Shown: positions 1,475 to 20,676 of the stretch, piece after piece | Numbering within the stretch: the stretch's first letter is position 1 | How the letters are laid out: each line of letters starts with the position of its first letter | Virus record (IMG/VR): IMGVR_UViG_3300033485_000020 | Coordinates: 1-50,282 of that record | Source of the DNA: a virus | Lineage: Duplodnaviria; Caudoviricetes | DNA length: 50,282 nt | Reading direction: 5' to 3' (one strand) | Program-made: the position numbers and the translations under genes | The notes under the pieces: model-generated | The model's database searches: none | Seen by the model: only the letters and a program-made list of their open reading frames with translations | Told to the model about the DNA's origin: nothing

Positions 1475-1902
1475 TGAGAAAACTAACTTTAGGTTTAGTC
1501 TTATTTATTTTAAATTCAACTCTCCTCCTCGCTCAAAATACCCTCACTTTCGAGTGGGATCCTCATTCTCAAGCTGCTGACCTCCTAGGCTTCAAACTCT
1601 ATCAATCTAAGCAAAGTGGCACATACTCCTCTACTCCCATAGCCACTTTCCTCGGAGGCTCCCTAACAACTGGCTCCATCACTAAACCCTCCAGCCCTGG
1701 CAAATGGTACTGGGTACTCACTGCCTACATGCTAGACGCTGAATCAGACTACAGCAATGAAGTCAACAAAGTCATCAAACCTAATCCTCCTAACCTTAAA
1801 TCCGTAACCCTAACAGCCCTGAAAGCTCCAGTAGGTGGTATAGTTAAACTAGCAAAACTTCTCAAGAAAGACAAGGGTCTGCGCGTAAGAGATGCCGAAT
1901 AA
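1474..1902 (+). CDS. Exported fibronectin type III-like protein
   Basis: Signal peptide (MRKLTLGLVLFIL...LAQ) and FN3-like pattern (TFEWD, GFKLY, YWVLTAY, ESDYSNEV). Confidence 0.7.
   Translation: MRKLTLGLVLFILNSTLLLAQNTLTFEWDPHSQAADLLGFKLYQSKQSGTYSSTPIATFLGGSLTTGSITKPSSPGKWYWVLTAYMLDAESDYSNEVNKVIKPNPPNLKSVTLTALKAPVGGIVKLAKLLKKDKGLRVRDAE
1497..1521. promoter_or_regulatory. 25-bp quasi-palindromic site, copy 1
   Basis: agtcttATTTATTTTAAATtcaact; lies inside the signal-peptide codons of ORF 1474. Confidence 0.8.
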
Positions 1903-2920
1903 GCTATCTGTCATAATCTCTAATCGTAACGATGTAGTGATGCTCGCTGTCACAGTGCGTTCCTGCCTCGAGGGCCTACGTCCTCTCGGTCCTGGCAACG
2001 CTGAAATAGTCATCTGTGACAACTCAGACAAAAACATCTATGAAGTGGTAAAAGCCGTCCTCCCTAATGGCTACTGCAAAGATGGTACTTTACGCCTTAT
2101 CAGACAAGACTTTCCTTGCCTCTTCTCCGCTCGTGAAACCGCAGCTCGTGAAGCCAAGGGTGAGTACATTCTGTGCTTGGATTCTCACATGTTAGTAGGC
2201 CATGACTCCATTGAAAAGATGGTCAACTTTATGGATCGCCATAGCACTGACTCCACTCTTGGCTTCGCCCATGCTCCACTTTCCTGGGCTCATCAGCATG
2301 AATCCCATGCTAAGCACGATAGAGACATGGCAAAGTCTGAGTTAGGTCCTTGGGGAGGTATTAAACATTCAGAATGTACAATCTCCTGGAAAGGAATGCC
2401 CTGGATATGCAGACGAGAATGGTTCCTAGACTATGATAAAGGTCTAGGAGGCTATGGAGCCCTTAGTAAACATCGAGTAAGTTGGGGCGGAGGAGATATG
2501 CACATAGGCATAAAGCCCTGGCTCCTCGGATTCAAGAACTGGGCAGTCCCCTGTAATCCTTGCATCCACATAGGGCCTTTTCCTAAACTTGATAGGGTGG
2601 CAGGCAAACCAGATGATACAATAGTTGACACCCAAGGCCTTCCATTCTCAGAACGTTACCGTCTTTATGGCTCCAGCGGAGACTTTCCTCACACCTTTGG
2701 ATTCCTCGTAAGCTGCTACGTAATCGGTGGTGAGCCTATGATGGAGCGAAATAGAGCATTTCTACAGAATAGATTCGGTGCTTACATAGACTACAACAAG
2801 TACTGGCGCCGAGCCATCGAAGTAGGCTTTGAGGAACATAAGTGGCTCCTTGAGCATCAAAAACTTAGTTTTGAAACCTTACTCCTTCAAATGCCGTGGA
2901 ATAAGAATGGATCTCACTAA
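1892..2920 (+). CDS. GT-A glycosyltransferase, polypeptide GalNAc-transferase (GT27)-like
   Basis: GT2-type N-terminus (LSVII, IVICDN), DxH motif LDSH, and WGGGD...W..G....VPC...IH resembling the Gal/GalNAc-T motif. Confidence 0.75.
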   Translation: MPNKLSVIISNRNDVVMLAVTVRSCLEGLRPLGPGNAEIVICDNSDKNIYEVVKAVLPNGYCKDGTLRLIRQDFPCLFSARETAAREAKGEYILCLDSHMLVGHDSIEKMVNFMDRHSTDSTLGFAHAPLSWAHQHESHAKHDRDMAKSELGPWGGIKHSECTISWKGMPWICRREWFLDYDKGLGGYGALSKHRVSWGGGDMHIGIKPWLLGFKNWAVPCNPCIHIGPFPKLDRVAGKPDDTIVDTQGLPFSERYRLYGSSGDFPHTFGFLVSCYVIGGEPMMERNRAFLQNRFGAYIDYNKYWRRAIEVGFEEHKWLLEHQKLSFETLLLQMPWNKNGSH

Positions 2921-4049
2921 TAACGAAAGAAAGTTCATAAACAGCGCTAACTCCTGGCAGTGGCATACTAACTTCATAGGCTATCATATGCAGCATAGCT
3001 ATTATCTCTATCACATAATCGACGAGATTATGACTGAGAATCCAGAGATAATGGGCATAGTCGAGATAGGCACTGGGAGTGGAGCTCTTACAACAGTCCT
3101 AGGTTTGTGGGGAATTAGTAGAAATATTCCTGTCCTATCAGTTGACATAAAGAACATTCATGACGATAAGGTATTCAGGGCCCTCAAAATAACCTACATC
3201 CAATTAGATGAATTCAGCGACTATCTAATTTCCGAGGTAAAGCGTTTCATCAATCGAGTCAATGGCCCTATCCTCTTCATCTGTGATGGAGGAAACAAGA
3301 TTCGGGAGTTCAACTTCTGGGCACCTCTCCTCAAACCAAACTCAATCATAGCTGCTCATGATTGGACTACTGAAATAGACTACGACTCCATAGCCTCTAT
3401 TGCCTCACTCCACTGCGAACCCTATAAAGAATATCGCTGGAATGAGATGAACGTTCAGTTCGTCACATTTAAGACTCGTCAAATTAGACCTTTCCTCTCA
3501 ATAGTCACCCGTAATCACCCAGGTAGGCCAAATCTCCTCAAACGCTGCATAGAGAGTGTGGAAAAACTAAAAGATAAGGACTTCCAGCACATAATAATCT
3601 ATGACAGTGAAGGTCTCGGAATCCCTCATGCTAATCAGCTATTTGCCAAAGGTAAGTATCGGGTAACTGGCGAATACGTCTTCATGTTAGACGATGATGA
3701 TGTCTTGATTTCGGATGACTTGGTTTCCGACATGAAGCTAGTCACAAGTCTCCAAAACTACCCAGACATAATCTTTGTCCTAATGACTCTTAATGGTATA
3801 ACCTTTCCCTCTCCTCTCGTGTGGGAAAAAGACCAACTAATTCCAGGAAACATAGGCACTTCCTGCTTCGTTATGAAGAATGAACTCTGGCAGGATTCCA
3901 TAGACTCATTCAAAACCACCGAACTCTCAGGGGACTTCAACTTCATCAACACAGCATTTTCCAAAACTTCTTCAAAATACTGGTATGGTAAGACTTACGC
4001 TAGAGCCTTTGGACTAAGCGGAGGAAAGGCGGAGGAAGATATTCTGTGA
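2907..4049 (+). CDS. SAM O-methyltransferase (CmcI/Methyltransf_24-like) fused to GT2 glycosyltransferase
   Basis: N-terminal VEIGTGSG, ICDGG and IAAHD. C-terminal LSIVT...YVFMLDDDD...SGDFNF. Confidence 0.8.
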   Translation: MDLTNNERKFINSANSWQWHTNFIGYHMQHSYYLYHIIDEIMTENPEIMGIVEIGTGSGALTTVLGLWGISRNIPVLSVDIKNIHDDKVFRALKITYIQLDEFSDYLISEVKRFINRVNGPILFICDGGNKIREFNFWAPLLKPNSIIAAHDWTTEIDYDSIASIASLHCEPYKEYRWNEMNVQFVTFKTRQIRPFLSIVTRNHPGRPNLLKRCIESVEKLKDKDFQHIIIYDSEGLGIPHANQLFAKGKYRVTGEYVFMLDDDDVLISDDLVSDMKLVTSLQNYPDIIFVLMTLNGITFPSPLVWEKDQLIPGNIGTSCFVMKNELWQDSIDSFKTTELSGDFNFINTAFSKTSSKYWYGKTYARAFGLSGGKAEEDIL

Positions 4050-6064
4050 AAACTCTAATAGTAGCTCTCTACCCTTACAATGGTCAAAGTCTCGATGCCT
4101 GGCATGACCACGGCGCAGGGATGACTTACACTGCAGCTAAAAAAGCAGGCTGTGATGTATCATTCTTGGACCTTAAGATCGTAAAAGACGACTCTGACCT
4201 TAAAGTAAAACTAAGAGGCTATGACTTAGTAGGCTTCGGACTAAAAAGCTCCTATTACCAAATAGGGATGAAGGTAGCCAGGGCTGCCAAAGAGAATGGC
4301 TCGCAGACCATTATTGGAGGCTATCACATTACAGCTGCTCCAACTGAAATTGAGCAGGAATTATTCGACTATGTATTCCATGGAGAAAGTGAAATAACCT
4401 TTCCTCAATTCCTCAAAGACCCATCTAAATTCTCTCGAGACATTTATGGAGAGAAAGTCCCAGACCTCAACCAACTTCCTTGGATTGATAGAACCATCTA
4501 TCGTGACACCCTGGAAAATTGCTCCTTCTGGTGGCATGGAGGACGACGTAATAAGATGCTCTCCGTCTTCTCAGCCCGCGGTTGTCCTTTCCAGTGTGCA
4601 TTCTGCCAACCTCTCGAGGACAATCACTTTGGCAAGAAGCTTCGTCGTCGCTCTGTAGACAACCTAATATCTGAACTAAAGTGGCTCAAGAATCTCCATC
4701 ATCCAGACTGCATAATGATCCACGATGATACCTTCTTTGTCCAGCCTAAATGGATCGAGGAATTCATCGAGAAGTATCCTCAAATAGGCCTCCCTTTCTG
4801 GGCTGCTGCTCGATCAGATGGGATTTGTGAGAGGCCTGACTTACTCCGTAAACTGGTAAAAGTAGGCTGGGAACTCGTCTCGGTGGGCTTCGAAAGTGGC
4901 TCTCAACGCATCCTTAATAAGATGAAGAAGGACATCACTGTCAAGCAAAATCTTGAGTCAGCCAAACTCATCAAATCAGCTGGAGCAAAGATATATGCTA
5001 ACTATATTCTCGGACTTCCTTGGGAAACTAAAGAGGACATTCAAAAGACTGCGCAAATGGCTGATGCCATAAAAGCTGAGATGCCCTCTTGGGCATACTT
5101 CACTCCTTATCCAGGCTGCCACCTAGGCGATGAATGTAAGGAAAATGACTGGTCACTTCTCGACAGAAATCACTATGATAGATGTCCTTCAGGGAAGAAG
5201 GTGAAGTTTGTCGACTATGAATACATCAATACAGTGTTAACTAAGCGCTTTCGTGAAGATGTACCACCGCTCACAACTGACATAGTAATTCCTACTTACG
5301 AAAACGAAGACTACACAGTCGCCTGTCTCAATAGCATCAAAGAATTCACTAATCCTGCAATGTATAGAGTAATCCTAGTTGACAACGGCTCTAAGAACTT
5401 CTCTCGAGTCGAAAAAGTCCTAGGAACAATCGACAAGTGCTTATATATCAGACTTCCCAAAAACGAGGGATTCGTAACAGCTGTCAACAAAGGCCTTCAA
5501 ACCTCTACTGCTCCATCAGTCTGCATCTTAAATAACGACACAGTTGTCACCGACAGATGGTTAGAGAAACTAGCCAGTGCCCTATTTTCAGACCCTGGAC
5601 TTGGAATTGTAGGTCCTCTTACTCAGCCTGGGATAGGTACAGCAGTAGACTCACACCATAGTTTGACTCTTCACTCTTCTCTAATCCCTAATAACCTCAA
5701 GCCTCTTGACATGGCTAATACGAACATCTATCTGGAATCCAACTATATGGGAATGACTAAGCCTATTTCCTTTGTAGCATTCCTTTGCGCCCTAATTAAA
5801 CGAGAGGTTCTCGACAAGGTAGGCTTCCTAGACCCAAACTATGCTATGGGAATGTATGATGATAATGACTATAACCTATTAGTGAGGAAAGCTGGCTACC
5901 GCTGTGAGCTCTTAATCGACACCTGTATTTATCATAGAGGAAGATCAACTTTTCAAATAATCGAGAAGAATGAAGGCTTTGATGTTAATTCACTTTTAAA
6001 GCGTAACCTAGAATACCTAAATAAAAAGCATAATCTCAACATGAAGAATGCACATATAAGATGA
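4046..6064 (+). CDS. B12-binding radical SAM protein fused to GT2 glycosyltransferase
   Basis: IIGGYH B12-domain motif, RGCPFQCAFC (CxxxCxxC), GFESGSQRIL and YFTPYPG. C-terminal DIVIPTY, VDNGS, LNNDT and YDDND. Confidence 0.9.
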   Translation: MKTLIVALYPYNGQSLDAWHDHGAGMTYTAAKKAGCDVSFLDLKIVKDDSDLKVKLRGYDLVGFGLKSSYYQIGMKVARAAKENGSQTIIGGYHITAAPTEIEQELFDYVFHGESEITFPQFLKDPSKFSRDIYGEKVPDLNQLPWIDRTIYRDTLENCSFWWHGGRRNKMLSVFSARGCPFQCAFCQPLEDNHFGKKLRRRSVDNLISELKWLKNLHHPDCIMIHDDTFFVQPKWIEEFIEKYPQIGLPFWAAARSDGICERPDLLRKLVKVGWELVSVGFESGSQRILNKMKKDITVKQNLESAKLIKSAGAKIYANYILGLPWETKEDIQKTAQMADAIKAEMPSWAYFTPYPGCHLGDECKENDWSLLDRNHYDRCPSGKKVKFVDYEYINTVLTKRFREDVPPLTTDIVIPTYENEDYTVACLNSIKEFTNPAMYRVILVDNGSKNFSRVEKVLGTIDKCLYIRLPKNEGFVTAVNKGLQTSTAPSVCILNNDTVVTDRWLEKLASALFSDPGLGIVGPLTQPGIGTAVDSHHSLTLHSSLIPNNLKPLDMANTNIYLESNYMGMTKPISFVAFLCALIKREVLDKVGFLDPNYAMGMYDDNDYNLLVRKAGYRCELLIDTCIYHRGRSTFQIIEKNEGFDVNSLLKRNLEYLNKKHNLNMKNAHIR

Positions 6065-6765
6065 ATTACACAGTCGTAATACCTAACCACTATCGAGATG
6101 TCATTGAGCCCTTGTTAAGATCTATCCACAAATATGAGAACTCTCCTGACGTACTCATCGTTGCAGATAGACATGATCTTGATTATGGTTATAGGCGAGT
6201 GCGCATAGATGGCAAATTCATCTTCAGCCACGCAGTTAACGTTGGTATAGACTCATGCGCTCCTAATGACGTAATCTTACTAAATGACGACGTTAGACTC
6301 ATAATGCCAACCTTTCGTCAACTATCCAAGCTTGCCTATTCAGACGATCAAATAGGCATCCTCTCTCCTCTAATCGACGGAGGATGTGGTAACTTATTCA
6401 TGCGTGCTTCCCGTACAGATCTTTGGAAACCAGGAATGGATTTCCACTTCTGCAATGCCAAAGGTGGAGATAGAGTAACTTTCGCTTGTGTTTACATAAA
6501 GAGATCTTTAATAGATAGCATCGGCAGGTTCGACGAAAACTTCAAAGGCTACGGCTTTGATGATGCAGATATGAGTATTAGGACTGTAAAGAGTGGATGG
6601 AAACTCGCTATTACTAATAAACTTACAGTTATGCACGGAAAAGGTGGAAATGTCTTCAAACGAGGCTATAATTGGAACACCTCATTCTTTCGTGCAGGTG
6701 CAAAGGGTGCTAGGGAAAATCTCGCATACCTAAGATCAATTCATCCTTCTATGGTGCGTAAATAG
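6061..6765 (+). CDS. GT2 family glycosyltransferase
   Basis: TVVIP, LLNDD, GRFDENFKGYGFDDAD. Confidence 0.9.
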   Translation: MNYTVVIPNHYRDVIEPLLRSIHKYENSPDVLIVADRHDLDYGYRRVRIDGKFIFSHAVNVGIDSCAPNDVILLNDDVRLIMPTFRQLSKLAYSDDQIGILSPLIDGGCGNLFMRASRTDLWKPGMDFHFCNAKGGDRVTFACVYIKRSLIDSIGRFDENFKGYGFDDADMSIRTVKSGWKLAITNKLTVMHGKGGNVFKRGYNWNTSFFRAGAKGARENLAYLRSIHPSMVRK

Positions 6766-6788: not shown

Positions 6789-6789
6789 A

Positions 6790-8325
6790 ATGGATAAAGA
6801 AACTGGTCTCATATTAAGTGCCTGCAGCGTCTCAACAAGGGCGGTGGCTAAGACTTTCTTTCCTGAGCGCTTCAACTTACCTTTCGCTGAAAATGTCCAC
6901 GGGAAGATCTTCAATGTCATAGATGGAACCTCTAACAAGAATGTAATAGCTGCCCCTCGTGGCTGGGGAAAGACTTCTATCGTAGCCCTTGCTCTCATGG
7001 CTCGCTATATCCTCTTCCGACTATGCGGCTTCATAGTCTACATCAACCAGTCTGAAACTGCTGCAGTAATGCAGACGGAGAACCTAAAACGTGAGCTCGT
7101 CACAAACCGTGTTATCAAGCATTTCTTTGGTTCTGTCAAAACTCGAGCTGCTGGAGATGATGAGATTGATGAGCAATTCTCCAAGAAGGCCTGGGTCGCT
7201 TATGATACCTTTGTTCTACCTCGAGGAGCTGGACAGCAAGTACGTGGAGTCATCTTCAAAAATGACCGTCCAGGACTCATTATTATTGATGACTTGGAAA
7301 ACAAAGATGATGTTATGAATCCTGATCTGCGCAAGCAGATAAAGACCTGGCTATATTCAGACGTCCTCGAGGCAATTCCTCAGACACATTTAAATTGGAA
7401 GGTAGTCTACATTGACACACTCAAGCATGAAGATGCACTTCTTCAACACCTATTAACCTCTGAAAGTTGGGAATCCCTCCGCCTCGAATCTTGCGATGAT
7501 GACTTTAATTCCACAGCTCCTGAGTTCGTCCCAACTGAGGTCATTAAAGCTAAATGGGAAGCTTCAGTAAAAGCAGGTGAAACTGACACCTTTTTCCAAG
7601 AGCATCGTAACCTCCCTATCTCATCCAAAGACTCAGCCTTCCGAGCTGAATACTTTCGCTATTACAACTTACCATCCACTCAATCTATTCGTGAAGGAAT
7701 AGACATACAGAAATTTGATTCAGAAATTCAATCAGATCAAAACATTGAGACTGTCATAATAGTTGATCCAGCTAAGACCGTAAAGATGCACTCGGCTGAG
7801 TCTGCCATAATAGGTATCGGAATAGACCTCACTTCCGCTCGTCTCTACATTCGAGATGCTATCTCCGATAAACTCTATCCAGATGAACTCTACGATGCTA
7901 TGTTTGGGATGGCTACTAGACTTGGTGCTAAGGTAATGGGAGTTGAGGAGACATCCCTAAATGAGTTTATAAAACAGCCTATTAAAAACGAGATGTTTCG
8001 CCGCGGTACTTTCTTTGAGCTCGTATGGCTAAATGCTCGGGGTGGGACTAAGAAAGAACTTCGTGTAAAGGAACTAGTCCCATACTACCGAGGAGGCTAC
8101 ATCTACCACAACGCCTCTTGCTCAACAATTAAGAAGCTTGAACAACAACTCCTTATGTATCCCAGATCTGCTCTATGGGATCTCATGGATGATGAGGCTT
8201 ACATTATAGAGATGCTCGAACTAGGCGAGCGTTACTTTTCTCCTAGTAATATTCCAGAGGATTCCGAAGCTGAATATGCTGAACTTAATTACGAGAAACC
8301 AATAGAAGATTGGAGATCTGTATGA
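6790..8325 (+). CDS. terL: Terminase large subunit
   Basis: Walker A APRGWGKT, Walker B IIIDDLE, RNase H-like nuclease region IVDPA...GVEE...DLMD. Confidence 0.92.
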   Translation: MDKETGLILSACSVSTRAVAKTFFPERFNLPFAENVHGKIFNVIDGTSNKNVIAAPRGWGKTSIVALALMARYILFRLCGFIVYINQSETAAVMQTENLKRELVTNRVIKHFFGSVKTRAAGDDEIDEQFSKKAWVAYDTFVLPRGAGQQVRGVIFKNDRPGLIIIDDLENKDDVMNPDLRKQIKTWLYSDVLEAIPQTHLNWKVVYIDTLKHEDALLQHLLTSESWESLRLESCDDDFNSTAPEFVPTEVIKAKWEASVKAGETDTFFQEHRNLPISSKDSAFRAEYFRYYNLPSTQSIREGIDIQKFDSEIQSDQNIETVIIVDPAKTVKMHSAESAIIGIGIDLTSARLYIRDAISDKLYPDELYDAMFGMATRLGAKVMGVEETSLNEFIKQPIKNEMFRRGTFFELVWLNARGGTKKELRVKELVPYYRGGYIYHNASCSTIKKLEQQLLMYPRSALWDLMDDEAYIIEMLELGERYFSPSNIPEDSEAEYAELNYEKPIEDWRSV

Positions 8326-8921: not shown

Positions 8922-9500
8922 ATGATTAATGTTAAAAAACACTATGGATCACACGCTAGATTTCTTGGGAGTGAATTAACAGCTAATCTTCACAGAAGTT
9001 TTAGGATACCGATAGCTGCAAACACTTCAGCTAGGTCTGGAAATTTCGTACGGGTAATGTATCAGGTTCATTCTACACAACAGTGCGAGATTCAGGGATC
9101 ATCTATACAAATACAAGGAGTTGGTGAGGATTTTGGCGCAGCTCCGGTTAGGTTGACATTTAATAATGGTAGTAACTCAATTATCCCAGCAGTTGGAACA
9201 TTCGTATTATCTGACTGGATAGCCTTTACGTTTACCAGAACAACAGCTTATCTTATTCATATTACTTTGAATCAAGTTGGTGGAAACAATGGGTGGAGAT
9301 ATCAAGCAGGGGCACCAGTCTCTGAGTACTACAAAGACTCTGTGGCTGATGATGAAACTATGGATCAGAATGTTGCAGGATATACAGATGATCAGTTTTT
9401 TCCTCTGGTATGTGGGATAGATGTTGCTGATGTAGCTGAATATAATTATCTAATAAGTCGTCGTGATAGGTTCAGAACAACAGGAATCTCATTAGGCTAA
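8922..9500 (+). CDS. Putative virion beta-sandwich protein
   Basis: Beta-rich ORF in the structural block; start chosen at ATG 8922. Confidence 0.5.
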   Translation: MINVKKHYGSHARFLGSELTANLHRSFRIPIAANTSARSGNFVRVMYQVHSTQQCEIQGSSIQIQGVGEDFGAAPVRLTFNNGSNSIIPAVGTFVLSDWIAFTFTRTTAYLIHITLNQVGGNNGWRYQAGAPVSEYYKDSVADDETMDQNVAGYTDDQFFPLVCGIDVADVAEYNYLISRRDRFRTTGISLG

Positions 9501-9501
9501 T

Positions 9502-10020
9502 ATGTCAGTAATCTTTGATGATATTCCAGATCTAATAATCCTAGATTATGATACTGATATCTGGGAGCCTTCTGAAATATCTACTACTATAGCTCCTACA
9601 ACCCTAGCTCCTACGACTATAGTCTCAACAACTCCTATTCCTACAACTCTTCCTCCGACTACTTTAGCCCCTACCACAGTAGTTTCCACTACTCCTATCC
9701 CAACCACAGTTGCTCCAACTACTTTAATACCTTCTACTACTCCAAGTCCAACTACTCTAGCGCCTACGACTATAATTTCAACCACTGCTCCTCCAACAAC
9801 TTTATTCCCTACTACGATAGTAACTACCTTAGCTCCAACAACACTAGTAACAACCTTTGCACCTACTACTAGTGTCCCAGTCCCTGTCTTTATATGCACT
9901 AAAAAATTAACCTCTTCTATCGAACACGAAATACTAGCTATCTCTCATATTATGACTGATATGCCTCTTCCATCACCGATTATAAAGGAGCTTGAAATAG
10001 ATGGAGACCTATGTTGGTGA
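9502..10020 (+). CDS. Mucin-like Thr/Pro-repeat protein
   Basis: About 20 tandem TTxxP/TTxxS pentapeptides (TTLAP, TTPIP, TTVAP and variants). Confidence 0.85.
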   Translation: MSVIFDDIPDLIILDYDTDIWEPSEISTTIAPTTLAPTTIVSTTPIPTTLPPTTLAPTTVVSTTPIPTTVAPTTLIPSTTPSPTTLAPTTIISTTAPPTTLFPTTIVTTLAPTTLVTTFAPTTSVPVPVFICTKKLTSSIEHEILAISHIMTDMPLPSPIIKELEIDGDLCW

Positions 10021-10363: not shown

Positions 10364-12319
10364 ATGCCATACATAGTGAAGGGAAATCCTGATTCATGGT
10401 CGAGAGTAAACTACAAGGATATGAATTTCGACTACAAATATCCTTATGGTTTAGATCTCAAACCAGACTCTGATTTTCATACTAAACTTCGTAGCAAGAT
10501 TTGGCAGCGTGCGCAAGAATCTCGGAATGAAATCTGCAAGAGGTTTAGTTCCTGGAGGGAAATAGATAGATCCTTAACAGTCTATATTGAGCCCACAGAC
10601 GAAGAAGAAACTGTCAAAGAGAAAGATCCCTCAAAGCCTATCTCTATAATCTTCCCTTATTCTTACTCAATGTTGGAAGCCCTTCTAACGTATCTCCAGA
10701 TGGCTTTCATTCAAGATCCTATCTTCCAATATGAAGGAGTAGAGGACGATGACACTGTTGGAGCAGCCCTTCTTGAACTCTGTATAAGGCTACATTGCAA
10801 TAAGAATAAGGTCCCTCTAAACCTTCATACTATGTTTCGTGACTCCTTAGCCTACGGAGTAGGAATAACCATTCCTGAATGGACTAGACGTTATGGAAAG
10901 AAGCCAGTAGTCCACCAATCAGTCACCGAGTCAGTCTTTGGAGCATCTTCTGCAAAGTATGTAACTATGGAAGATGCTATGTTGTTTGAAGGGAATAAGC
11001 TGAGCAACATAGATCCTTATATGTGGCTGCCAGACCCATCTGTAGCCAGCTCAGATATTCAAAGTGGAGAGTTCGTAGGCTGGGTGGATCGCACTAATTA
11101 CATGAAACTACTCAGTCTCGAAACTGAACCAGATTCTGGCTACTTCAACGTAAAGTATTTAAAAGAAAAGAAAGACCGTCGCTCAATCCTCGCTCTCGAT
11201 CAAAGTGATCGACAAACAAAGCATGGTGGGTCTACTGAACTAAACCGTTCAATGACTGAGACTGTGAACCCAGTTGATTCCATAAAGATGTATATCACAC
11301 TTATTCCAAAAGACTGGGAGCTCACCAACTCAGAAGTTCCCGAAAAGTGGTTCTTTGAGCTCGGCTCAGATGACGTAATCATTAGGTGTGAAAAAGCTGA
11401 CCACAACCACGGAATGTATCCTATATCAGTCGCTTCTCCCGAATACGATGGCTATTCAATAACTCCTATCGGTCGAATGGAGGTGCTCTATGGCTTGCAG
11501 CATACTCTTGATTTCCTGTTCAATTCGCACATCAGTAATGTACGCAAAGCGATTAACGACATGCTTGTTGTTGACCCTTATCTTGTCAACATTGAAGACC
11601 TTAAGGATCCTAAGCCTGGAAAACTCATACGTCTTCGCAGACCGGCGTGGGGTAGGGGTGTTGAGAAGGTTGTACAGCAGCTCGTTGTTCAAGACATTAC
11701 ACGTCTCAACATTAGCGATTCTTCATACATCACACAGTGGATGAATCAAATCGCAGGCGCTGATCAGGCAATGGCTGGAGTACTTCGTACTGGTGGACCT
11801 GAGCGTCTGACAAGTGCTGAATTCCAAGGTACTCGAGGATCTGCAATTAGTCGCCTCCAACGCATTGCTCAGATAATTAGTATGCAAGCAATGCATGATA
11901 TAGGAATGATGTTCGCTGTCCACACTCAGCAATATATGCAGCAGGAAACTTATGTAAAAATAGTTGGTCGTCATGCTGATGCACTCAAATCTATCTTCGG
12001 GCCTAAGCGACAAAATGCCCCTGTAAGCCCTTACGATTTAGCAATAAACTATGATCTAATGATACGAGATGGCTCAATTCCTGGAGGTAACTTCTCTGAC
12101 ACCTGGATAGAGCTATTCAAGACCATAGGTACAACCCCTGAATTAGCTATGCAGTTTGATGTTTCTCGAATCTTCATGTACATAGCTCATCAACTAGGTG
12201 CAAAGAATGTAGAGGACTTCAGACGTGTAACTAATCAGATCCAGCCTCAAGTTATGCCTGATGAGACGGTAGCTCGTCAGGTACAAGCCGGCAACTTGAT
12301 TCCAGCAGGAGTACAATAA
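10364..12319 (+). CDS. Portal protein
   Basis: 651 aa between terL and scaffold/capsid. Podovirus-portal-like features (DSLAYGVG, IDPY, LQHTLDFLFN, TSAEF). Confidence 0.85.
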   Translation: MPYIVKGNPDSWSRVNYKDMNFDYKYPYGLDLKPDSDFHTKLRSKIWQRAQESRNEICKRFSSWREIDRSLTVYIEPTDEEETVKEKDPSKPISIIFPYSYSMLEALLTYLQMAFIQDPIFQYEGVEDDDTVGAALLELCIRLHCNKNKVPLNLHTMFRDSLAYGVGITIPEWTRRYGKKPVVHQSVTESVFGASSAKYVTMEDAMLFEGNKLSNIDPYMWLPDPSVASSDIQSGEFVGWVDRTNYMKLLSLETEPDSGYFNVKYLKEKKDRRSILALDQSDRQTKHGGSTELNRSMTETVNPVDSIKMYITLIPKDWELTNSEVPEKWFFELGSDDVIIRCEKADHNHGMYPISVASPEYDGYSITPIGRMEVLYGLQHTLDFLFNSHISNVRKAINDMLVVDPYLVNIEDLKDPKPGKLIRLRRPAWGRGVEKVVQQLVVQDITRLNISDSSYITQWMNQIAGADQAMAGVLRTGGPERLTSAEFQGTRGSAISRLQRIAQIISMQAMHDIGMMFAVHTQQYMQQETYVKIVGRHADALKSIFGPKRQNAPVSPYDLAINYDLMIRDGSIPGGNFSDTWIELFKTIGTTPELAMQFDVSRIFMYIAHQLGAKNVEDFRRVTNQIQPQVMPDETVARQVQAGNLIPAGVQ

Positions 12320-12621
12320 TGGGAGAGATAGTAGAAATCAATGCTACAAAGGATCAGATAAAGGACTTCCTAGATTCAGTCCTCTGGGCTGACATAACCA
12401 GAGAGTGTGAATCTTGGGTCACTGGTTTCCAACGTGAGCAGGATGCAATCGTAGATGACGCAGCCTCAACTAATCCATCTACTGCTTCAGTCCTTCTCCA
12501 CCTCGGAGACATAAACGGTCGAAAGAAAGCTATTACTTACTTACTCAGCCTCCCTGAACTATTCCTGCAAATCTTAAATGAACGAACTAAGACACCATCC
12601 GAGGAGGTTAGCAATGAGTGA
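12319..12621 (+). CDS. Hypothetical head-module protein
   Basis: 100-aa helical ORF between portal and scaffold with a good RBS. Confidence 0.55.
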   Translation: MGEIVEINATKDQIKDFLDSVLWADITRECESWVTGFQREQDAIVDDAASTNPSTASVLLHLGDINGRKKAITYLLSLPELFLQILNERTKTPSEEVSNE

Positions 12622-13435
12622 AGACGTAGCAAAAGATGTAGCTGAAATGAATGACTTATTCGACGCAATCCTTAAGCCACCAGCATCAACTGAGGAAAAA
12701 TCTGATGAACCGAAAGAAGAGCCTAAGGATGAAGAAGTTGAGCCAAAAGAAGAGACTGTGGTTCCTGAAGATAAGGAAGAGAAATCTACAGAGCCAGAGC
12801 CTAAAGTAGATGAAAAAGTACCTGACGAGAAAGACAAAGCAATAGCGGATCTGAGAAATGAAATTGCAGCTTTGCAGGCAAAGGTAGCTACTCCTCCTAA
12901 ACCGGAGGAGAAACCAGACATAAAGCCTGCTCTGCCAGATGTCTCAGATCAAGACTTTATCGGAGACTTGGACCTTGACGAAGTAACTCGGGATTCTAAG
13001 GAGTTCAATAAAGTCCTCAACAACATTTACAAGAAGGCCAGACTTGATGGAGAACAAGCAATAATAAGCCGACTTCCGGAGTTGATAACTTCACAAGTGA
13101 ATGCTATCAACACTATGCAGAAGGCGGTGGAGGAATTCTATACAGCTAATGAAGACCTCAAGGCTTTTAGTAAAGTTGTTTCTGTTGTAACTCAAGAACT
13201 CGCGCAGGGCAATAAGGAACAGACTCTAGATAATCTAATGACTAACGTGGAGTCTGAGGTGCGCAAACGACTTTCTTTGCCAAGGAAAGCCGCTGAGAAG
13301 AAAGAGGATCCTCCTAAAAAGGAAGTTCCTCGACTTCCTGGCAAGAGTTCCTCCGCAGGAAAGTCAACAACCGAAACCAAAATCAAGTCTCTCGAAAGTG
13401 AGCTTGAAGAAATGAACAAGGTTATAGGGAGATAA
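12614..13435 (+). CDS. Capsid scaffolding protein
   Basis: E/K/P-rich N-terminus and coiled coils, upstream of the capsid gene. GGAGG RBS before ATG 12614. Confidence 0.75.
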   Translation: MSEDVAKDVAEMNDLFDAILKPPASTEEKSDEPKEEPKDEEVEPKEETVVPEDKEEKSTEPEPKVDEKVPDEKDKAIADLRNEIAALQAKVATPPKPEEKPDIKPALPDVSDQDFIGDLDLDEVTRDSKEFNKVLNNIYKKARLDGEQAIISRLPELITSQVNAINTMQKAVEEFYTANEDLKAFSKVVSVVTQELAQGNKEQTLDNLMTNVESEVRKRLSLPRKAAEKKEDPPKKEVPRLPGKSSSAGKSTTETKIKSLESELEEMNKVIGR

Positions 13436-13440: not shown

Positions 13441-13866
13441 ATGGGTCTTGAACAGAATGAAGCTCAGCAGTACAGAGAGATCCCTGATAAGTACGTTGAG
13501 CCGAATGCAAACTATCAGATGAGAACGTGGGACTATGTTCTTCGTCCTTCATCTCAAGGTGCAGGCGGCCCGATAATTATCACGCTTCCTCCTGTCTCTG
13601 AGGCAAAGGGTCGATTCTATTCGATCATCTGTCGCGCTGCAAGCGCTGTCAACACAATAACTATCACTGACAAGAATGACTCTGAGTGCTGGACTGCTGA
13701 CATAGTCCTGGACGGCAAGTGTGACAGAGTTCTACTCTACAGCGATGGTCTGGCATGGATGGCATTGGGTCTTAATCCTGGAGATTGGCCAGGTGCTTCA
13801 ACGACTGGCGCTCCTGGAACGGCAACAGCAACAACCCTTGCTCCGACTACATCGGTTCAGATATAA
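13441..13866 (+). CDS. Putative capsid decoration/minor head protein with TTLAPTT tail
   Basis: Between scaffold and MCP. ITLPP and LLYSDG..W beta motifs; C-terminus TATATTLAPTTSVQI. Confidence 0.6.
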   Translation: MGLEQNEAQQYREIPDKYVEPNANYQMRTWDYVLRPSSQGAGGPIIITLPPVSEAKGRFYSIICRAASAVNTITITDKNDSECWTADIVLDGKCDRVLLYSDGLAWMALGLNPGDWPGASTTGAPGTATATTLAPTTSVQI

Positions 13867-13896: not shown

Positions 13897-13913
13897 TAAC
13901 ACATGAGGTGAAT

Positions 13914-15215
13914 ATGTTTCTTGGAATGAGAGGTAACGATGACTGGGTTGCCGACCAGAGGCCAATGAATTGGAGACAACAGATACTCTATTTGTATCCT
14001 AATGGCTCCGCGCCCTTAACGGCTATCCTTTCTATGATGGGAAGTCAATCAGTGGATGATCCACAGTTCCATTGGTGGACTCAGTCTCAAAGTGCAGTAT
14101 CAGGAGCAGTAGCTGGTGTATTTACTCTCCCTGATCTCTCTGTGGCCTACGCTGCAGGTGGTGTGGCTGGAGATATCGTCTATGTCCAGATCACAACTGT
14201 GCTTGGTAACAGAATTCGCGAAGGTCATCAGATTCTCCTCCGCGATGCTTCTGACTTCACAGTCGATGTAGTTGGCAAAGTCACTGGAGTAACCAGAGGC
14301 GCTGTCAACACTGTGTTGGCTGTGAAACTCTTGGAAGCTGACGATAACTCAACAACTCACGATCTCAGCGATTGCGATAACTTCAAAATTATCGGCAACA
14401 TCAATCCTGAGGGTGGTGAGATGCCTGATGCTATCGCACTCAACCCTGTCAAGGTGTATAACTACACCCAGATTTTCCGTACTCCTCTTTCATTAACTCG
14501 AACTGCAAAAAAGACCAAGCTTCGTACTCCTGACCAGTACCAGAAGGCGAAGTCTGAAGCTCTTGAAATGCACTCGTGGGAAATGGAACTGGCATTTCTG
14601 TGGGGAATACGTACTGAGAACACTGGAGACAACGGGAAGCCTGAGCGCACCACTATGGGTGTGATCAACTTCATTCGACAGTTTGCCCCCCTAAACTGCG
14701 ATGACTTCTCTACTAATGCTACTTATGCTGGTCTAGCATGGGCAGCTGCAGCGGGTGGATTGCTCTGGTTTGACAACATGCTGGAGCAAATCTTTAGGTT
14801 TGGAGCGACTGAGAAGCTTGCTCTGTGCGGATCGGGTGCTATACTTGGACTCCAACGTCTAGCACTTGTCCACGGACAGATTCAGCTTCAGAACGTTCCC
14901 AAAGCCTATGGTATGGAGATTTTGAGGTGGGTAACTCCGTTTGGTTCTATCTATCTCAAAACTCATCCACTCTTCAGCCATGATGCTACAACTCGTAACA
15001 TGATGGTCTTGCTTGAACCGAAGGAACTCACCTATCGTTACATTGACGATACTCAGTTCTACAACGAGGCTAATGCCAAGTCGCATCCTGAGGGATACGG
15101 CGGGAAACGTCTTGATGGCACGAACGAGGAGTTCCTCACTGAATGTGGCCTTGAATTTGGCCTCTCCGAGAAGTGTGCTGTACTCAACGGCGTCGGACTT
15201 GATAGTGTCGTTTAA
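13914..15215 (+). CDS. Major capsid protein (SU10/DUF5309-like)
   Basis: NYTQIFRTP, E...E.AFLWG, RTTMG and TPFG motifs; follows the scaffold. Confidence 0.85.
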   Translation: MFLGMRGNDDWVADQRPMNWRQQILYLYPNGSAPLTAILSMMGSQSVDDPQFHWWTQSQSAVSGAVAGVFTLPDLSVAYAAGGVAGDIVYVQITTVLGNRIREGHQILLRDASDFTVDVVGKVTGVTRGAVNTVLAVKLLEADDNSTTHDLSDCDNFKIIGNINPEGGEMPDAIALNPVKVYNYTQIFRTPLSLTRTAKKTKLRTPDQYQKAKSEALEMHSWEMELAFLWGIRTENTGDNGKPERTTMGVINFIRQFAPLNCDDFSTNATYAGLAWAAAAGGLLWFDNMLEQIFRFGATEKLALCGSGAILGLQRLALVHGQIQLQNVPKAYGMEILRWVTPFGSIYLKTHPLFSHDATTRNMMVLLEPKELTYRYIDDTQFYNEANAKSHPEGYGGKRLDGTNEEFLTECGLEFGLSEKCAVLNGVGLDSVV

Positions 15216-16635: not shown

Positions 16636-17138
16636 TGCCTACACTACAAGATGGAACCTTTTCATTCACTATTGGATCAGAGGACTTGGCGCGAGGACTT
16701 AGACCATCTAAACGAAGTCCTCGCAATACAAAGTTCCTCACCAAGTGTGCTGGGGCTGTAGGACTGGACAATGTACTTCAAGCGCTTGCAGATATTACTG
16801 GAGATCGAATAGACACTTCAGCCCTTGCAGGTGTAGCTCATCCATATCCACAGTTGTTCGTATTCACTAATGTAATAATGGTCTGTTTGTCTACTCGAAT
16901 ATACGAGTATGATGGAACGTCTCTTACATTACGCTTGGACATAGGTGCTCCTAACGCAGGTATTTCATGGTCAGCTGTGGATTTCTTCGATTACATCTAT
17001 ATGAGCAATGGGAAGGTAGTTGTAGTGCGAAGCTCTGAAAGCAAAGCCTGGACTGTAACTACTTCCTTACCTCTTGCTAGCGGAATATGCAATCTTAATG
17101 GTCAAGTACTCATTGGTGCTCCTGATGTGGAGTGGTAA
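16635..17138 (+). CDS. Tail nozzle/stabilisation protein, N-terminal part (putative)
   Basis: Beta-propeller-like blades (YIYMSNG, CNLNGQVLIG); ends abruptly at 167 aa. Confidence 0.5.
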   Translation: MPTLQDGTFSFTIGSEDLARGLRPSKRSPRNTKFLTKCAGAVGLDNVLQALADITGDRIDTSALAGVAHPYPQLFVFTNVIMVCLSTRIYEYDGTSLTLRLDIGAPNAGISWSAVDFFDYIYMSNGKVVVVRSSESKAWTVTTSLPLASGICNLNGQVLIGAPDVEW

Positions 17139-17140
17139 TA

Positions 17141-19009
17141 ATGTCTCCTTATGTTGTTGAGTTTAATTACACACTTCCTGCTTTAAGCATATCTCCTGGG
17201 AATATAGCTTATATAAGGATCTATGAGCAGGTGCTTATAGCAGATCCAGTGTTAGAGCTTAGAAGTCAATTCTCATATAATCCAGCAGTTCATGTAGGAT
17301 CTAATTATATGAGGTATGAGACTGAAGTCCCAGGCCCTCATGTGCATTATATCTATGGATACTTTCTTGTAGGGATGGAAGCTATTGAACAGCTCCTTAT
17401 GGCTCCTATAACAGCTACTGCTGTTCCATTAGCGGAGGTCTCCTCAACTGATAATTCTGGGACTCCAGTAGTTCCTCATGATAGATGGGGAGTAGGCACA
17501 GGTCCTTGGAATTTCACTAAGCAATATAATAAATGGGCTTATCTTAATAATCCGCGCTGGTTAGTTAATGGGAGAGTATTCGTTCACGGAGGGCCTGACG
17601 ACTATAATGGGAGAGAAAGTTTGGAGCCTCAGTTATGGACTCCTACTGATAGGACTGGACGTTCAAGAGGAACATTAAACAGACATCATCAATGTGGACA
17701 CTGGCATCAGCCTGTAGCTATATCACCTACAACCTTAGCTCCTACTACTATACCATTTGGAGGTTTTACATATGAAGGATGGCTTAGTTGTCCTCAGTTT
17801 ATTCTTCCATCTCCAGATACTCCTGGTCAAGTATGGTATATAACTTCTCTCGACGATGAGCCAGATGATTACTTTAGAGTCATAGAATACTTTGATGGGG
17901 CTGGATATTATTGGGATAGTGTATATAACTTTCTTCATACTGACGTAGAATCTTGGGAACACTGGCAGGAGCCTGATGGAGGAGTCGCTCAACGTGGAGC
18001 TATCTCAGTTGTAGCATTTATAGGTAATGATGATGCTGTAAATGCCTCAAGTTACTATCTCGAAACTTGGGTATTTAACAATGGGACTTTGTTAAATCAT
18101 ACTATAACTCCTGCAGGCCCAGCTTATGCATATGGACAGATAATAATCTCTAATATGGACTCTAAACTTTGTGCAATAGATAGTGCTGGAAATATTCATG
18201 TAGCCTTAAAGACTTTCAAAGGAGGTGTGTATAGAATATATGACTTTAGATCTACAGATAATGGTGCAAGCTTTAATCCAGTATTAGTAAGATCAGGAGT
18301 AAGTGGATCTTATAATAACTTTAAAGACTTAGGGGTCTTTAGTGATGGTACTCTCTATATCAGAGAGGGATGGATTATGCTAACATCTGCAGATAATGGT
18401 GCAACCTGGGGATTGTTAGGAGGCTCTGGTGACATAGGTTTATATATGTCATCAGATACTTGCTATATAAATGATACTTTCTTTACTATAGGCTGTGATT
18501 ATAATGGGCCTCCTTATAATGACGTTCTTTTACTAAGATCAGTTAATGGACTAATATATAGTACAGTCCTAACAATACCAGGACTATGGACTACTCTATC
18601 TGGATGTGATATGCTCTATGATGGAACTTATTATTATCTAGCTGTAATGTTTAGAAATTCTACTGTAGGAAAACCTGCTGGATATACTAGAATATATAGA
18701 AGTGACGATGGGATAACTTGGGTTTTAATTTCTACTATAGTCGACGAATCTCAATTAGGCGTACCTTCCAGATATGTTGCATGGGACGCTTTGTTATGGC
18801 CCACTCAAATAATCAAATCGGGTAGTGATCTATTCTATTGCTTTTATTATGGATCTATGAGCGCACCAGCTCATGGAGGCGCTAGTGTTTATTTAATGAG
18901 TATTTGGAAATCCAGTGACAGCGGAGTAACATGGGAAACTGTGCATACTCCTTATTATGATCTAACTAGAACTCCTGCATCAGATGTACCTTGCGGGGCT
19001 TGGGGGTAA
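17141..19009 (+). CDS. BNR/Asp-box beta-propeller protein (putative receptor-binding or sialidase-like)
   Basis: Asp-boxes RSTDNGASF, TSADNGATW, RSDDGITW and KSSDSGVTW; internal SPTTLAPTTIP linker. Confidence 0.75.
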   Translation: MSPYVVEFNYTLPALSISPGNIAYIRIYEQVLIADPVLELRSQFSYNPAVHVGSNYMRYETEVPGPHVHYIYGYFLVGMEAIEQLLMAPITATAVPLAEVSSTDNSGTPVVPHDRWGVGTGPWNFTKQYNKWAYLNNPRWLVNGRVFVHGGPDDYNGRESLEPQLWTPTDRTGRSRGTLNRHHQCGHWHQPVAISPTTLAPTTIPFGGFTYEGWLSCPQFILPSPDTPGQVWYITSLDDEPDDYFRVIEYFDGAGYYWDSVYNFLHTDVESWEHWQEPDGGVAQRGAISVVAFIGNDDAVNASSYYLETWVFNNGTLLNHTITPAGPAYAYGQIIISNMDSKLCAIDSAGNIHVALKTFKGGVYRIYDFRSTDNGASFNPVLVRSGVSGSYNNFKDLGVFSDGTLYIREGWIMLTSADNGATWGLLGGSGDIGLYMSSDTCYINDTFFTIGCDYNGPPYNDVLLLRSVNGLIYSTVLTIPGLWTTLSGCDMLYDGTYYYLAVMFRNSTVGKPAGYTRIYRSDDGITWVLISTIVDESQLGVPSRYVAWDALLWPTQIIKSGSDLFYCFYYGSMSAPAHGGASVYLMSIWKSSDSGVTWETVHTPYYDLTRTPASDVPCGAWG

Positions 19010-19011
19010 AG

Positions 19012-19437
19012 ATGGCAAATCAAGCATCAAATCACATAAAGTATTTATTAGCAACTGGGGCAGTAGACTTTCTCAACGATCAGTTTATCATAATCCTTAT
19101 GGAATCTGGCTTTGTGTTTGATAAAGACACACATGAGGAATATGTAGACGTATCAGCGAGCGAGATTCCAGCTGGTAATGGATACCTTCAATTCACTAAA
19201 GTCCTCGCCGGAGTAGCAGTTGCTGAGGATGATGTAGATGATCGCTGCGAAGTTACTTGGACTAATCCTGCGTGGATAGCTGCTGGTGGAGATATAGGCC
19301 CTGCCTCAGGTGCTATCATCCTGGATGATACAGTAGCTAATGATCCGGTAGTTGGCTACATAGACTTTGGTGGTGACTATACTCAGGCCGATGGTGGAAC
19401 TGCTACATTGTCAGGTGTTGAAGTTAGAATTCAGTAG
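19012..19437 (+). CDS. Putative tail structural protein
   Basis: E...GNGY, W.A.GG.IGP...AII.DDT and GYIDFG motifs typical of phage tail-associated proteins. Confidence 0.6.
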   Translation: MANQASNHIKYLLATGAVDFLNDQFIIILMESGFVFDKDTHEEYVDVSASEIPAGNGYLQFTKVLAGVAVAEDDVDDRCEVTWTNPAWIAAGGDIGPASGAIILDDTVANDPVVGYIDFGGDYTQADGGTATLSGVEVRIQ

Positions 19438-19446
19438 GAGGAAGTA

Positions 19447-20676
19447 ATGGCTACTACACTAATTCCTACTACTCTATTCGCTACAACTTTAGCTCCTACA
19501 ACCATAGCAGCTGATGATGTAACTATTGTATGTGATCCTATAGTACTCACTTTCGTCAAGCCTCAGGGAGTACTCAGTCACATTCCAGGACCTATTGACC
19601 ATGACTTAGATTATCTTCTTGATATAAGTGATGATCCTATTGTTATCACATTATCCCAAGAAGGCTCTATTAGTGGAATGTCTTCTGGTGATTATAGTAT
19701 TCCAATTACTATATTCATAGAAGGTTCATTGGTTGTAGGTACAGTCATCTCCTGTAATCCAATAGTAATAACTCTCGAAGTCTCTCCAGTTGCAGAAATG
19801 ATCCTTCAATCAAACGTCTGCAACTTTGTAGCGTGGTCTCAGATTGGGCATCTGAATTTTGACATAACCAAGACCAATGAAGCTGGTAAGATAGTGATGG
19901 ATTGGCGAGGGTGTGTTAATGAGATACTTAAGCTGGGAAACTCAGCTGTGGTATACGGAGGAGATGGAGTAGCTATTCTGACGCCTTCTCAAAATAAGTA
20001 TGGGAAGCAGACTATTCATCGAATAGGATTGTTGAATAAAGAGGCAGTAGCTGGGACTGAGTATGAGCATTACTTCATTGATAAAAAGTATAGGTTGCAT
20101 AGGATTACTCAGCAGAATGGACTAGAGCTACTTGACTATTCTGAGTATTTATCTCTATTGACTAATCCAAAGTTAGCTCTAGACATTTCGGAGAAGCTGC
20201 TCTACATCTGTGATAATGTCTATGGATTTGTCTATGGGACTCAAACTAAGAGTTTTGGCGAGGGGCCTATAAACATTACTGGAGTAGGTTATCAGGGAAC
20301 AACTCTCTATGTTACTTCAGTTGGGACTATTAGGATTCCAAAGTTTCATGTTACTACAGATATGTACGACTTAGGTACACGAAAGCCTAAGACAGTCCAG
20401 GAGATAGAACTAGGGACTGATCTTACAGTTGGTCTCGAGGCTAAGATTGAATCTCGACTTAGTAACAAACTCCCATTCATTAGTTCTCGGTGGGTTCTAG
20501 TTAATCCTACTGGTCGAGCATTCCTTCCATGCTACGGGATTGAGTTTAAGTTTCATGTAAGATCATTTATGTATGAGTACTTTGAGCTTGATTACTTAAC
20601 AATTAAAGGAACCATGCATGAGTATGAATACCTAGAGGCAATAGGAAACTCTGTCAGGAATGATCCGATAAGTTAA
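19447..20676 (+). CDS. Tail nozzle/stabilisation protein, C-terminal part (putative), with N-terminal TTLAPTT tag
   Basis: Starts MATTLIPTTLFATTLAPTT, has PIV(I/L)T repeats, then a propeller-like region from NFVAWSQIG. Confidence 0.55.
   Translation: MATTLIPTTLFATTLAPTTIAADDVTIVCDPIVLTFVKPQGVLSHIPGPIDHDLDYLLDISDDPIVITLSQEGSISGMSSGDYSIPITIFIEGSLVVGTVISCNPIVITLEVSPVAEMILQSNVCNFVAWSQIGHLNFDITKTNEAGKIVMDWRGCVNEILKLGNSAVVYGGDGVAILTPSQNKYGKQTIHRIGLLNKEAVAGTEYEHYFIDKKYRLHRITQQNGLELLDYSEYLSLLTNPKLALDISEKLLYICDNVYGFVYGTQTKSFGEGPINITGVGYQGTTLYVTSVGTIRIPKFHVTTDMYDLGTRKPKTVQEIELGTDLTVGLEAKIESRLSNKLPFISSRWVLVNPTGRAFLPCYGIEFKFHVRSFMYEYFELDYLTIKGTMHEYEYLEAIGNSVRNDPIS

Follow-up and report, generated by a model that had tools for sequence, protein, structure and literature searches.

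The 50,282-bp virus record IMGVR_UViG_3300033485_000020, here called the window (the whole stretch of DNA that was analysed), is a complete phage genome with direct terminal repeats of 127 bp, and it probably carries the genes of a protein O-glycosylation system of its own, which would act in the cytoplasm on a portable acceptor tag. As proposed here from sequence comparison and modelling, a 342-residue glycosyltransferase, the product of open reading frame (ORF) 1892, would prime short Thr/Pro tags on proteins of the structural region, and a homolog of SqdB, the uridine diphosphate (UDP)-sulfoquinovose synthase, would be linked to it. The genes concerned are the following.

1892-2920, plus strand: ORF1892, GT27-like GT-A glycosyltransferase (Pfam Glycos_transf_2, E 3.4e-16)
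9502-10020, plus strand: ORF9502, mucin-like protein of 172 residues; pentads at residues 28-126 (about nucleotides 9583-9879); TT[LA]APTT at 9598, 9658, 9751 and 9823 in the six-frame scan
10001-10330, plus strand: ORF10001, small protein ending in a tag (...ETSTPPTTAAPTTPTP, roughly nucleotides 10286-10327); TT[LA]APTT at 10298
13441-13866, plus strand: ORF13441, directly upstream of the major capsid gene; Thr/Pro tail at about nucleotides 13759-13863; TT[LA]APTT at the C-terminus, 13831
17132-19009, plus strand: ORF17132 (ORF 17141 of the preliminary description), large structural-region protein with a weak BNR repeat match; linker tag SPTTLAPTTIP (17729-17749), TT[LA]APTT at 17729
19447-20676, plus strand: ORF19447, N-terminal tag (MATTLIPTTLFATTLAPTTIAA, nucleotides 19450-19512), TT[LA]APTT at 19483; weak PHROG match to 'virion structural protein' (E 6.5e-4)
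37870-39045, minus strand: SqdB/SQD1 UDP-sulfoquinovose synthase homolog, in the replication-gene block, 31 kb from ORF1892

TT(L/A)APTT had been reported in five structural-region proteins in a preliminary description of this DNA, and a six-frame scan located eight sites at the places claimed, all on the plus strand and in the frame of the ORFs listed above. The same description had estimated some 20 repeats in ORF9502, and 20 TTxx(P/S/T) pentads were counted there, in an array preceded by a short N-terminal part and followed by 45 C-terminal residues. The tags are beyond chance: TTxxPTT is expected 0.006 times in ~9,900 residues, and its carriers besides ORF9502 number four, against a mean of 0.009 and a maximum of 1 in 2,000 residue shuffles. 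Copying of one DNA segment between genes is ruled out, as the synonymous codons differ at every site; it is therefore the peptide rather than the DNA stretch that is conserved, which points to selection on the peptide. Over all loci, 868 strict motifs yield the consensus PTT[L/V/A][A/P]PTT with a period of 5, and the spacing between successive motifs is 5 residues in 554 cases, far above any other spacing. Relatives have giant mucin-like versions of 898 to 1,238 residues, with 28-80 strict TTxxPTT motifs, at L088:1-2694, L089:891-4604 and L137:1-3189.

The most widespread tag carrier is ORF13441, with homologs in 126 loci. Its AlphaFold2 model combines a beta-rich core (residues ~20-110), with a predicted local distance difference test score (pLDDT) above 90, and a disordered C-terminal tail (pLDDT <50). 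Foldseek matches the core to N-terminal anchor domains of phage spikes, namely those of a tailspike (E 6.6e-5), of the Pa223 capsid spike from a Pseudomonas phage (E 1.2e-3) and of T4 gp9/gp10, with E values from 6.6e-5 to 4e-3 in all. The N-termini of many fibre-like viral proteins are similar to it as well. Most of the ORF10001 homologs listed end in a Thr/Pro tag. In ORF17132 the tag follows an N-terminal part that is shared with relatives, most of those listed aligning to residues ~116-252 only, and the C-terminal part is mostly not shared; residues 127-399 of ORF19447 are conserved in all relatives, and only some of the relatives that carry the system (system-positive) have a tag at the N-terminus. 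Pfam, PHROGs and NCBIfam returned no family for ORF9502, ORF10001 or ORF13441. In a 5-kb relative (L104), the major capsid protein homolog (2327-3724, plus strand) itself ends in a Thr/Pro tag (...ATATTAAPTTLGPTTIVTTAAPTTVV), and the tag can therefore sit on a capsid subunit. Being mostly terminal and joining nothing, the tags appear to act as appendages rather than linkers, as their positions support, and the tagged proteins would be located on the virion.

In ORF1892, Pfam finds nothing but a GT2 domain, and the AlphaFold model built from 28 homologs (pLDDT 85.6, predicted template modelling score 0.87) places the enzyme more closely. Foldseek of this model against the PDB returned polypeptide N-acetylgalactosamine (GalNAc)-transferases at every listed match through rank 37, and the structural match to the GT27 catalytic domain spans residues 1-338, which is the whole domain including its GT27-specific elaborations. 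Across the 28 homologs there is no variation at D97, S98, H99, W198 and H226 and hardly any at G199 and G200, while the fourth position of the WGG motif is G or D, as opposed to E in the GT27 WGGE; we take these to correspond to the Mn-binding DxH with its downstream His and to the Gal/GalNAc-transferase WGGE motif. The 28-sequence profile aligns to GalNAc-T10 (2d7i) over 220 positions (E 1.6e-5), pairing DSH with DSH, WGGgd with WGGEQ and viHi with VGHI. The single sequence retrieved no GT27 chain from the PDB at E <=1, and in the profile search chondroitin synthase and TarP score above GalNAc-T10. The model thus supports a protein that works like a GT27 catalytic domain, and, given the low similarity, the better-scoring chains outside GT27 and the equally near bacterial GT2/7C clusters, we do not class ORF1892 as a GT27 member. 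Its earlier designation as the priming enzyme is supported by the predicted GT27-like fold together with the conserved metal-binding and WGG motifs.

The C-terminal ricin-type lectin domain and the N-terminal type II membrane anchor of GT27 enzymes are absent from ORF1892, which begins at the first beta strand of the GT-A fold and has no leader, stem or membrane segment; with no anchor or leader and the first strand of the fold at its N-terminus, the enzyme is presumably cytoplasmic. Homologs number 463 at E 1e-3 or better, full-length enzymes of this type are few, with 41 representatives among 1.84 billion (E 1e-30 or better), and most of the nearest clusters in the ESM Atlas are viral.

The proposed membership of SqdB in the system was borne out by comparison across genomes, where it tracks ORF1892 despite the 31 kb between them and the opposite strand. 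The protein matches NCBIfam NF041015 over its full length (E 1.4e-134; 448.9 bits, below the 575-bit equivalog cut-off), the next family being much weaker at 33 bits, and it aligns to Arabidopsis SQD1 (1qrr) at E 4.9e-101, with query residues 2-390 on chain residues 3-382. The stretches GTMGEYGTP and SFYHLSKVHD, presumably the catalytic Thr and YxxxK regions, are identical in SqdB and SQD1. SQD1 and SqdB serve sulfolipid synthesis in phototrophs, and the phage protein resembles SQD1 in its full-length homology and catalytic site; unlike sulfolipid systems, however, no GT4 (SqdX-type) sulfolipid synthase was found in the window, SqdB tracks the GT27-like enzyme and the protein tags, and its score stays below the equivalog cut-off. 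In the record of a more distant relative (L005), SqdB lies directly 3' of the capsid gene. In G019, the record of locus L059, the SqdB homolog matches in two pieces (28867-29358 and 29476-30123) within one 421-residue frame, which suggests an insertion of ~40 residues in its middle.

Relatives were collected via terminase, capsid and ORF1892, and 35 whole records were searched with a back-translated TTxxPTT DNA pattern, of which a reversed control gave at most one match per record; records at least 90% complete are termed near-complete. The question raised earlier, whether relatives without an ORF1892 homolog keep the tags, is answered in the negative: tags are present in 18 of 21 records with a homolog and in 1 of 14 without, or in 13 of 14 and 0 of 7, respectively, when only near-complete records are counted. 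SqdB follows the same division (18/21 against 2/14 in all records; 14/14 against 0/7 in near-complete ones), and both SqdB-positive records without an ORF1892 homolog are incomplete and tag-bearing. In each of the 20 system-positive records that could be assessed, the tail of the ORF13441 homolog, taken after the conserved YSDGxxW, is 21-44 residues long and contains PT(T/S); in each of the 10 system-negative ones it has 9-21 residues and no PT (0/10 keep the tag), four further records not being assessable. System-negative tails (such as those of L038, L120, L125 and L154) are aromatic and acidic, of the ...FPSGYDYDY or ...FDDLFPK type. Other glycosyltransferase genes do not bring tags with them, as G016, G022, G024 and G033 contain other GT2 genes and have neither an ORF1892 homolog nor tags.

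The exceptions to the pairing of enzyme and tag fall away once the sequences are inspected. G015 (91% complete, with an ORF1892 homolog and no tag) was rejected as a true exception, its ORF13441 homolog running off the contig end, and in G014 a tag-bearing gene is likewise interrupted by the contig end. G030, which has an ORF1892 homolog but no strict motif, has the variant tail ...TSHAPTTLLTT, and G029, with tags and no ORF1892 homolog, is 67% complete. The pairing also recurs in other genomic backgrounds, adding to the tree counts given below. In L006, which has a different replication module, an enzyme homolog of 45% identity is followed directly by a 110-residue ORF with TTLAPTT, and in L188, a contig from a Verrucomicrobiota metagenome-assembled genome, the ORF directly upstream of a 34% identical homolog ends in PPTT repeats.

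Several observations weigh against the proposed system, and the main weakness is the limited independence of the association. A terminase tree of 29 records has 5 changes of enzyme state and 6 of tag state, with only 2 independent pairs on well-supported branches, so that an independent-pairs sign test cannot reach significance; a capsid tree of 30 records and an outgroup has 5 changes of system state, or 3 when near-complete records alone are counted. The Fisher p values of 4.6e-6 to 3e-8 ignore relatedness and, for that reason, overstate the case. The capsid tree shows system-negative lineages at four places (six records in one clade, one pair and two single records); each time the enzyme, the remote SqdB and the tags of separate genes are all missing, and at every state change these three physically separate components change jointly. 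The link between SqdB and ORF1892 is one of co-occurrence only, and three records with an ORF1892 homolog yielded no SqdB (G001, which is 85% complete and has 9 tags, G007 and G025); SqdB may therefore not be obligatory, or may lie in missing parts of the records. For the enzyme itself, sequence identity to GT27 is low, at 15-20%, and unsolved bacterial GT2/Glyco_transf_7C families in the ESM Atlas are equally close. The placement of the tagged proteins on the virion draws on where their genes lie, on a modest fold match (E 6.6e-5 to 1.2e-3, TMq ~0.5) and on one weak PHROG match. Finally, a scaffold-like acidic protein is encoded between portal and capsid (12578-13435, plus strand, in the window; L017:17484-18302; L028:14988-15854), and its homologs in several system-positive relatives contain S-T-E-x-P pentad arrays, which fit a coat poorly, since a true scaffold would be absent from the mature particle.

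ORF1892 is the first of four consecutive glycosyltransferase genes (1892-6765, plus strand) between the lysis genes and terL, an arrangement that the preliminary description had recognised and that Pfam, PHROG and ESM Atlas comparisons uphold, the assignment being solid for two of the genes and probable for the other two. The remaining three are as follows.

2907-4049, plus strand: ORF2907, two-domain methyltransferase/glycosyltransferase accessory (TTG start at 2829 in the ORF list; ATG at 2907 is the alternative)
4046-6064, plus strand: ORF4046, B12-binding/radical SAM/GT2 fusion accessory (Pfam)
6061-6765, plus strand: ORF6061, probable GT-A glycosyltransferase accessory (Pfam/PHROG)

ORF2907 has a weak Pfam GT2 match below the cut-off (E 0.0046); its ESM Atlas neighbours, by feature and by structure, carry Methyltransf_24/RMNT_CmcI over residues ~7-191 and GT2 over 193-376, and it is thus probably an N-terminal CmcI-like (sugar O-methyltransferase-like) domain joined to a C-terminal GT-A-like domain. 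Among the related loci searched, its homologs are found in 3 only. ORF4046 contains a B12-binding domain (PF02310, E 2.2e-10), a radical SAM domain (PF04055, E 4.8e-19) and a GT2 domain (E 5.2e-22), and the order of B12-binding before radical SAM is that of class B radical SAM enzymes; its top NCBIfam match among B12-radical-SAM families is HpnJ (E 4.4e-37, below its cut-off). For ORF6061, Glyco_tranf_2_3 (E 1.5e-5; 25.6 bits against a 27-bit cut-off), Glyco_transf_7C (E 1.1e-3) and a PHROG glycosyltransferase (E 1.2e-5) all match, and homologs occur in 9 loci. In G010 and G025, the records of L030 and L077, the ORF4046 homolog lies inside open frames of 962-972 residues, ~300 residues longer than that of the window, and would therefore be a larger fusion in those phages.

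The genes accompanying ORF1892 differ between phages, and include methyltransferases, GT7C/GT2 and GT1-like proteins, an epimerase and beta-helix proteins. Full-length ORF4046 homologs are present in 5 of the 35 records (a sixth gives a weak partial match), two of which, G016 and G024, have neither an ORF1892 homolog nor tags; ORF4046 therefore does not appear tied to the tags. A complete relative with 33 tags has a single PF00535 match across its whole record, and between its ORF1892 homolog and the terminase there is just one ORF of 170 residues, without a Pfam family. The earlier proposal that the remaining three GT2 domains lengthen the chain thus finds no support in the comparison, the genes being sporadic and the ORF4046 homolog present in tag-less records too. 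ORF2907, ORF4046 and ORF6061 would be sporadic accessories, which in this phage may still extend or modify the glycan. Capping of the glycan by methyltransferases is plausible, as a methyltransferase-like domain is the commonest fusion partner of ORF1892-type enzymes (6 of the 8 fused enzymes examined). In L007, two paralogs of the GT27-like enzyme (5573-6529 and 9335-10336) flank a Methyltransf_24 gene and a GT17-like gene, and repeat proteins lie downstream of the pair, one of them matching Pfam Extensin_1.

The system is embedded in a gene order in which all gene-like ORFs of at least 100 residues between 32 and 30842 are on the plus strand and the replication genes follow on the minus strand from ~30.8 kb onward. 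The landmarks of the plus-strand block are these.

567-959, plus strand: Peptidase_M15_3 endolysin (Pfam)
6790-8325, plus strand: large terminase, by 48% identity to the one annotated in Desulfofustis phage OP947158 (the Pfam scan of this ORF gave no match)
10364-12319, plus strand: SU10-type portal
13908-15215, plus strand: SU10-type major capsid protein, with no Thr/Pro tag at its end

The closest GenBank phage is Desulfofustis phage LS06-2018-MD01 (capsid identity 50%). Between the lysis genes and ORF1892 lies a 142-residue ORF (1474-1902, plus strand) with a hydrophobic, signal-peptide-like N-terminus (MRKLTLGLVLFILNSTLLLAQ...); its homologs occur in 7 loci only, and the Pfam scan assigned it no family. 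The last gene of the plus-strand block (23343-30842) encodes 2,499 residues with weak local PHROG matches only (DNA methyltransferase-like at 1293-1460, endolysin-like at 949-1005), and the structural block of the Desulfofustis phage has a 4.7-kb ORF at its corresponding end. The minus-strand replication block encodes an 839-residue family A DNA polymerase that combines a 3'-5' exonuclease domain with a uracil-DNA glycosylase superfamily domain at its N-terminus (32342-34861) and, beside SqdB, a fusion of a ParB N-terminal domain with an N6/N4 DNA methylase (35337-36653) and a deoxycytidine monophosphate (dCMP) deaminase (37091-37534).

In the mechanism we propose, SqdB would make UDP-sulfoquinovose from host UDP-glucose and sulfite. 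ORF1892, soluble and encoded between the lysis and structural genes in the same orientation, would recognise the extended P-T-T-(L/V/A)-(A/P)-P-T-T sequence and glycosylate its threonines. The acceptor stretches would be the terminal tails, the linker or the long repeat array of structural-region proteins, including the spike-anchor-like ORF13441; phage-specific accessories, here ORF2907, ORF4046 and ORF6061, would extend or methylate the glycan, and the particle would thereby acquire a glycan coat, which may be sulfonated. The donor could be UDP-sulfoquinovose rather than UDP-GalNAc, so that the system can be called mucin-type, in the GalNAc sense, only putatively. We put forward tentatively, as a possibility below even chances, the more specific version in which the GT27-like enzyme places SqdB-made sulfoquinovose directly on the threonines of PTTxAP, giving proteins associated with capsid and tail a polyanionic, sulfonated, mucin-like brush. 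Against it stand the use of UDP-GalNAc by GT27 enzymes and the fact that we know of no GT-A enzyme that transfers sulfoquinovose to protein.

Alternatively, ORF1892 may glycosylate the tags with an ordinary host donor (UDP-GalNAc, UDP-N-acetylglucosamine or UDP-glucose), with SqdB serving a later sugar that accessory transferases add, or the sulfolipid or envelope metabolism of the infected host. The closest solved folds all use UDP-GalNAc, G001 combines the enzyme and 9 tags with no SqdB found (in a record 85% complete), and a Mu-like virus is described as carrying a putative UDP-sulfoquinovose synthase as an auxiliary metabolic gene (PMC7785012). We nevertheless consider this unlikely, because SqdB, though in a different module, is present in 14/14 near-complete records with the enzyme and 0/7 without, no SqdX-type GT4 was found in the window, and the 33-tag relative yielded no second GT2-type transferase that could add a sulfo-sugar (other transferase families were not searched there).

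Further from our proposal, the Thr/Pro stretches could be unmodified spacers, the transferases and SqdB acting on host surface or lipids (for example in superinfection exclusion) and the features together marking one sub-lineage, which we regard as improbable. Pro/Thr-rich linkers are common, for instance in secreted bacterial enzymes, and the ORF17132 tag does lie between two protein parts, whereas most tags are terminal and connect nothing. Although the few independent state changes on the trees would suit a sub-lineage marker, the negatives are nested among positives at four places of the capsid tree with joint absence of enzyme, SqdB and tags each time, and the pairing recurs in other genomic backgrounds beside homologs only 34-45% identical. 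PHROGs files the matching transferases under 'moron, auxiliary metabolic gene and host takeover', but ORF1892 has no leader or membrane segment and its best structural matches act on peptides. It would be very surprising, finally, if the transferases glycosylated hypermodified phage DNA bases, unrelated to the tags. Phage glycosyltransferases often act on DNA (PMC12619734), and the genome encodes a dCMP deaminase, a fusion of a uracil-DNA glycosylase domain with DNA polymerase and a ParB/DNA methylase fusion; such a role would, however, leave the tracking of ORF1892 by tags in structural genes unexplained, the fold is closest to peptide-acting GT27, and the genes lie between those for lysis and packaging, away from replication.

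A protein O-glycosylation system primed by ORF1892 would belong to a known kind, phage self-glycosylation. Mycobacteriophage virion glycosylation was reportedly described by Freeman et al. in Cell Host Microbe in 2023. In mycobacteriophages such as Che8, phage-encoded glycosyltransferases are responsible for glycans on the C-termini of capsid and tail-tube subunits that form a shield, and these are so far the only phages reported to glycosylate their particles with enzymes of their own (PMC12619734, PMC11256854). The present phages likewise combine transferase genes with mostly terminal, putative acceptor tails on structural-region proteins, extending in L104 to the capsid C-terminus. They differ from mycobacteriophages in that ORF1892 has no tblastn match there, in the pentad sequon on up to five or more proteins, in the giant mucin-like repeat proteins, in a dedicated SqdB and in their SU10-type portal and capsid genes. 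From eukaryotic GT27 enzymes, the initiators of mucin-type O-glycosylation, ORF1892 differs in lacking lectin domain, anchor and stem, in its 15-20% identity and in belonging to a small, mostly viral family. Chloroviruses and giant viruses also encode transferases that decorate their own capsid proteins in the cytoplasm, as proposed here, but they infect eukaryotes, their glycans and glycosylation sites are unrelated, and we know of no shared sequon or SqdB link in their systems. For sulfoquinovose, a precedent outside sulfolipids is Agl3, which is connected with sulfoquinovose-containing glycoconjugates of Sulfolobus (PMC4388408).

In tblastn searches of 50,697 GenBank phage records, mycobacteriophages included, ORF1892 had no match at E 1e-3 or better and SqdB no homolog, and with neither core enzyme in these records there is no cultured handle on the system. 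The SqdB scan of viral contigs found members of the same phage family only, the enzyme-profile scan of 185,579 species genomes gave 10 confirmed loci with 2 full-length relatives, and related contigs number at least 120. A literature search, from which subscription journals were mostly missing, retrieved no description of a GT27-like enzyme, SqdB and a Thr/Pro tag combined in a phage.

The system would extend phage self-glycosylation beyond actinobacteriophages to a large, uncultured family with SU10-type portal and capsid, by means of an enzyme family that differs from the mycobacteriophage one and a sequon that can be read from sequence. Its three parts are defined, namely a 342-residue enzyme, a sugar-nucleotide synthase and a tag of 7-10 residues, and, if the proposal is true, they would make a compact cytoplasmic O-glycosylation tool for glycoengineering and would offer, from a prokaryotic virus, a point of comparison for how GT27 enzymes arose. 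Should the sugar be sulfoquinovose, protein O-sulfoquinovosylation would possibly be new chemistry, the first example as far as the literature was searched, and the enzyme would be a phage relative of the family that initiates mucin-type O-glycosylation in animals, with a short sequon moved in evolution among at least six different proteins; it would add a new protein modification and a new sink to the environmental sulfoquinovose cycle. For the phages themselves, glycan-shielded proteins would become predictable from sequence, which would bear on adsorption, stability and immune recognition.

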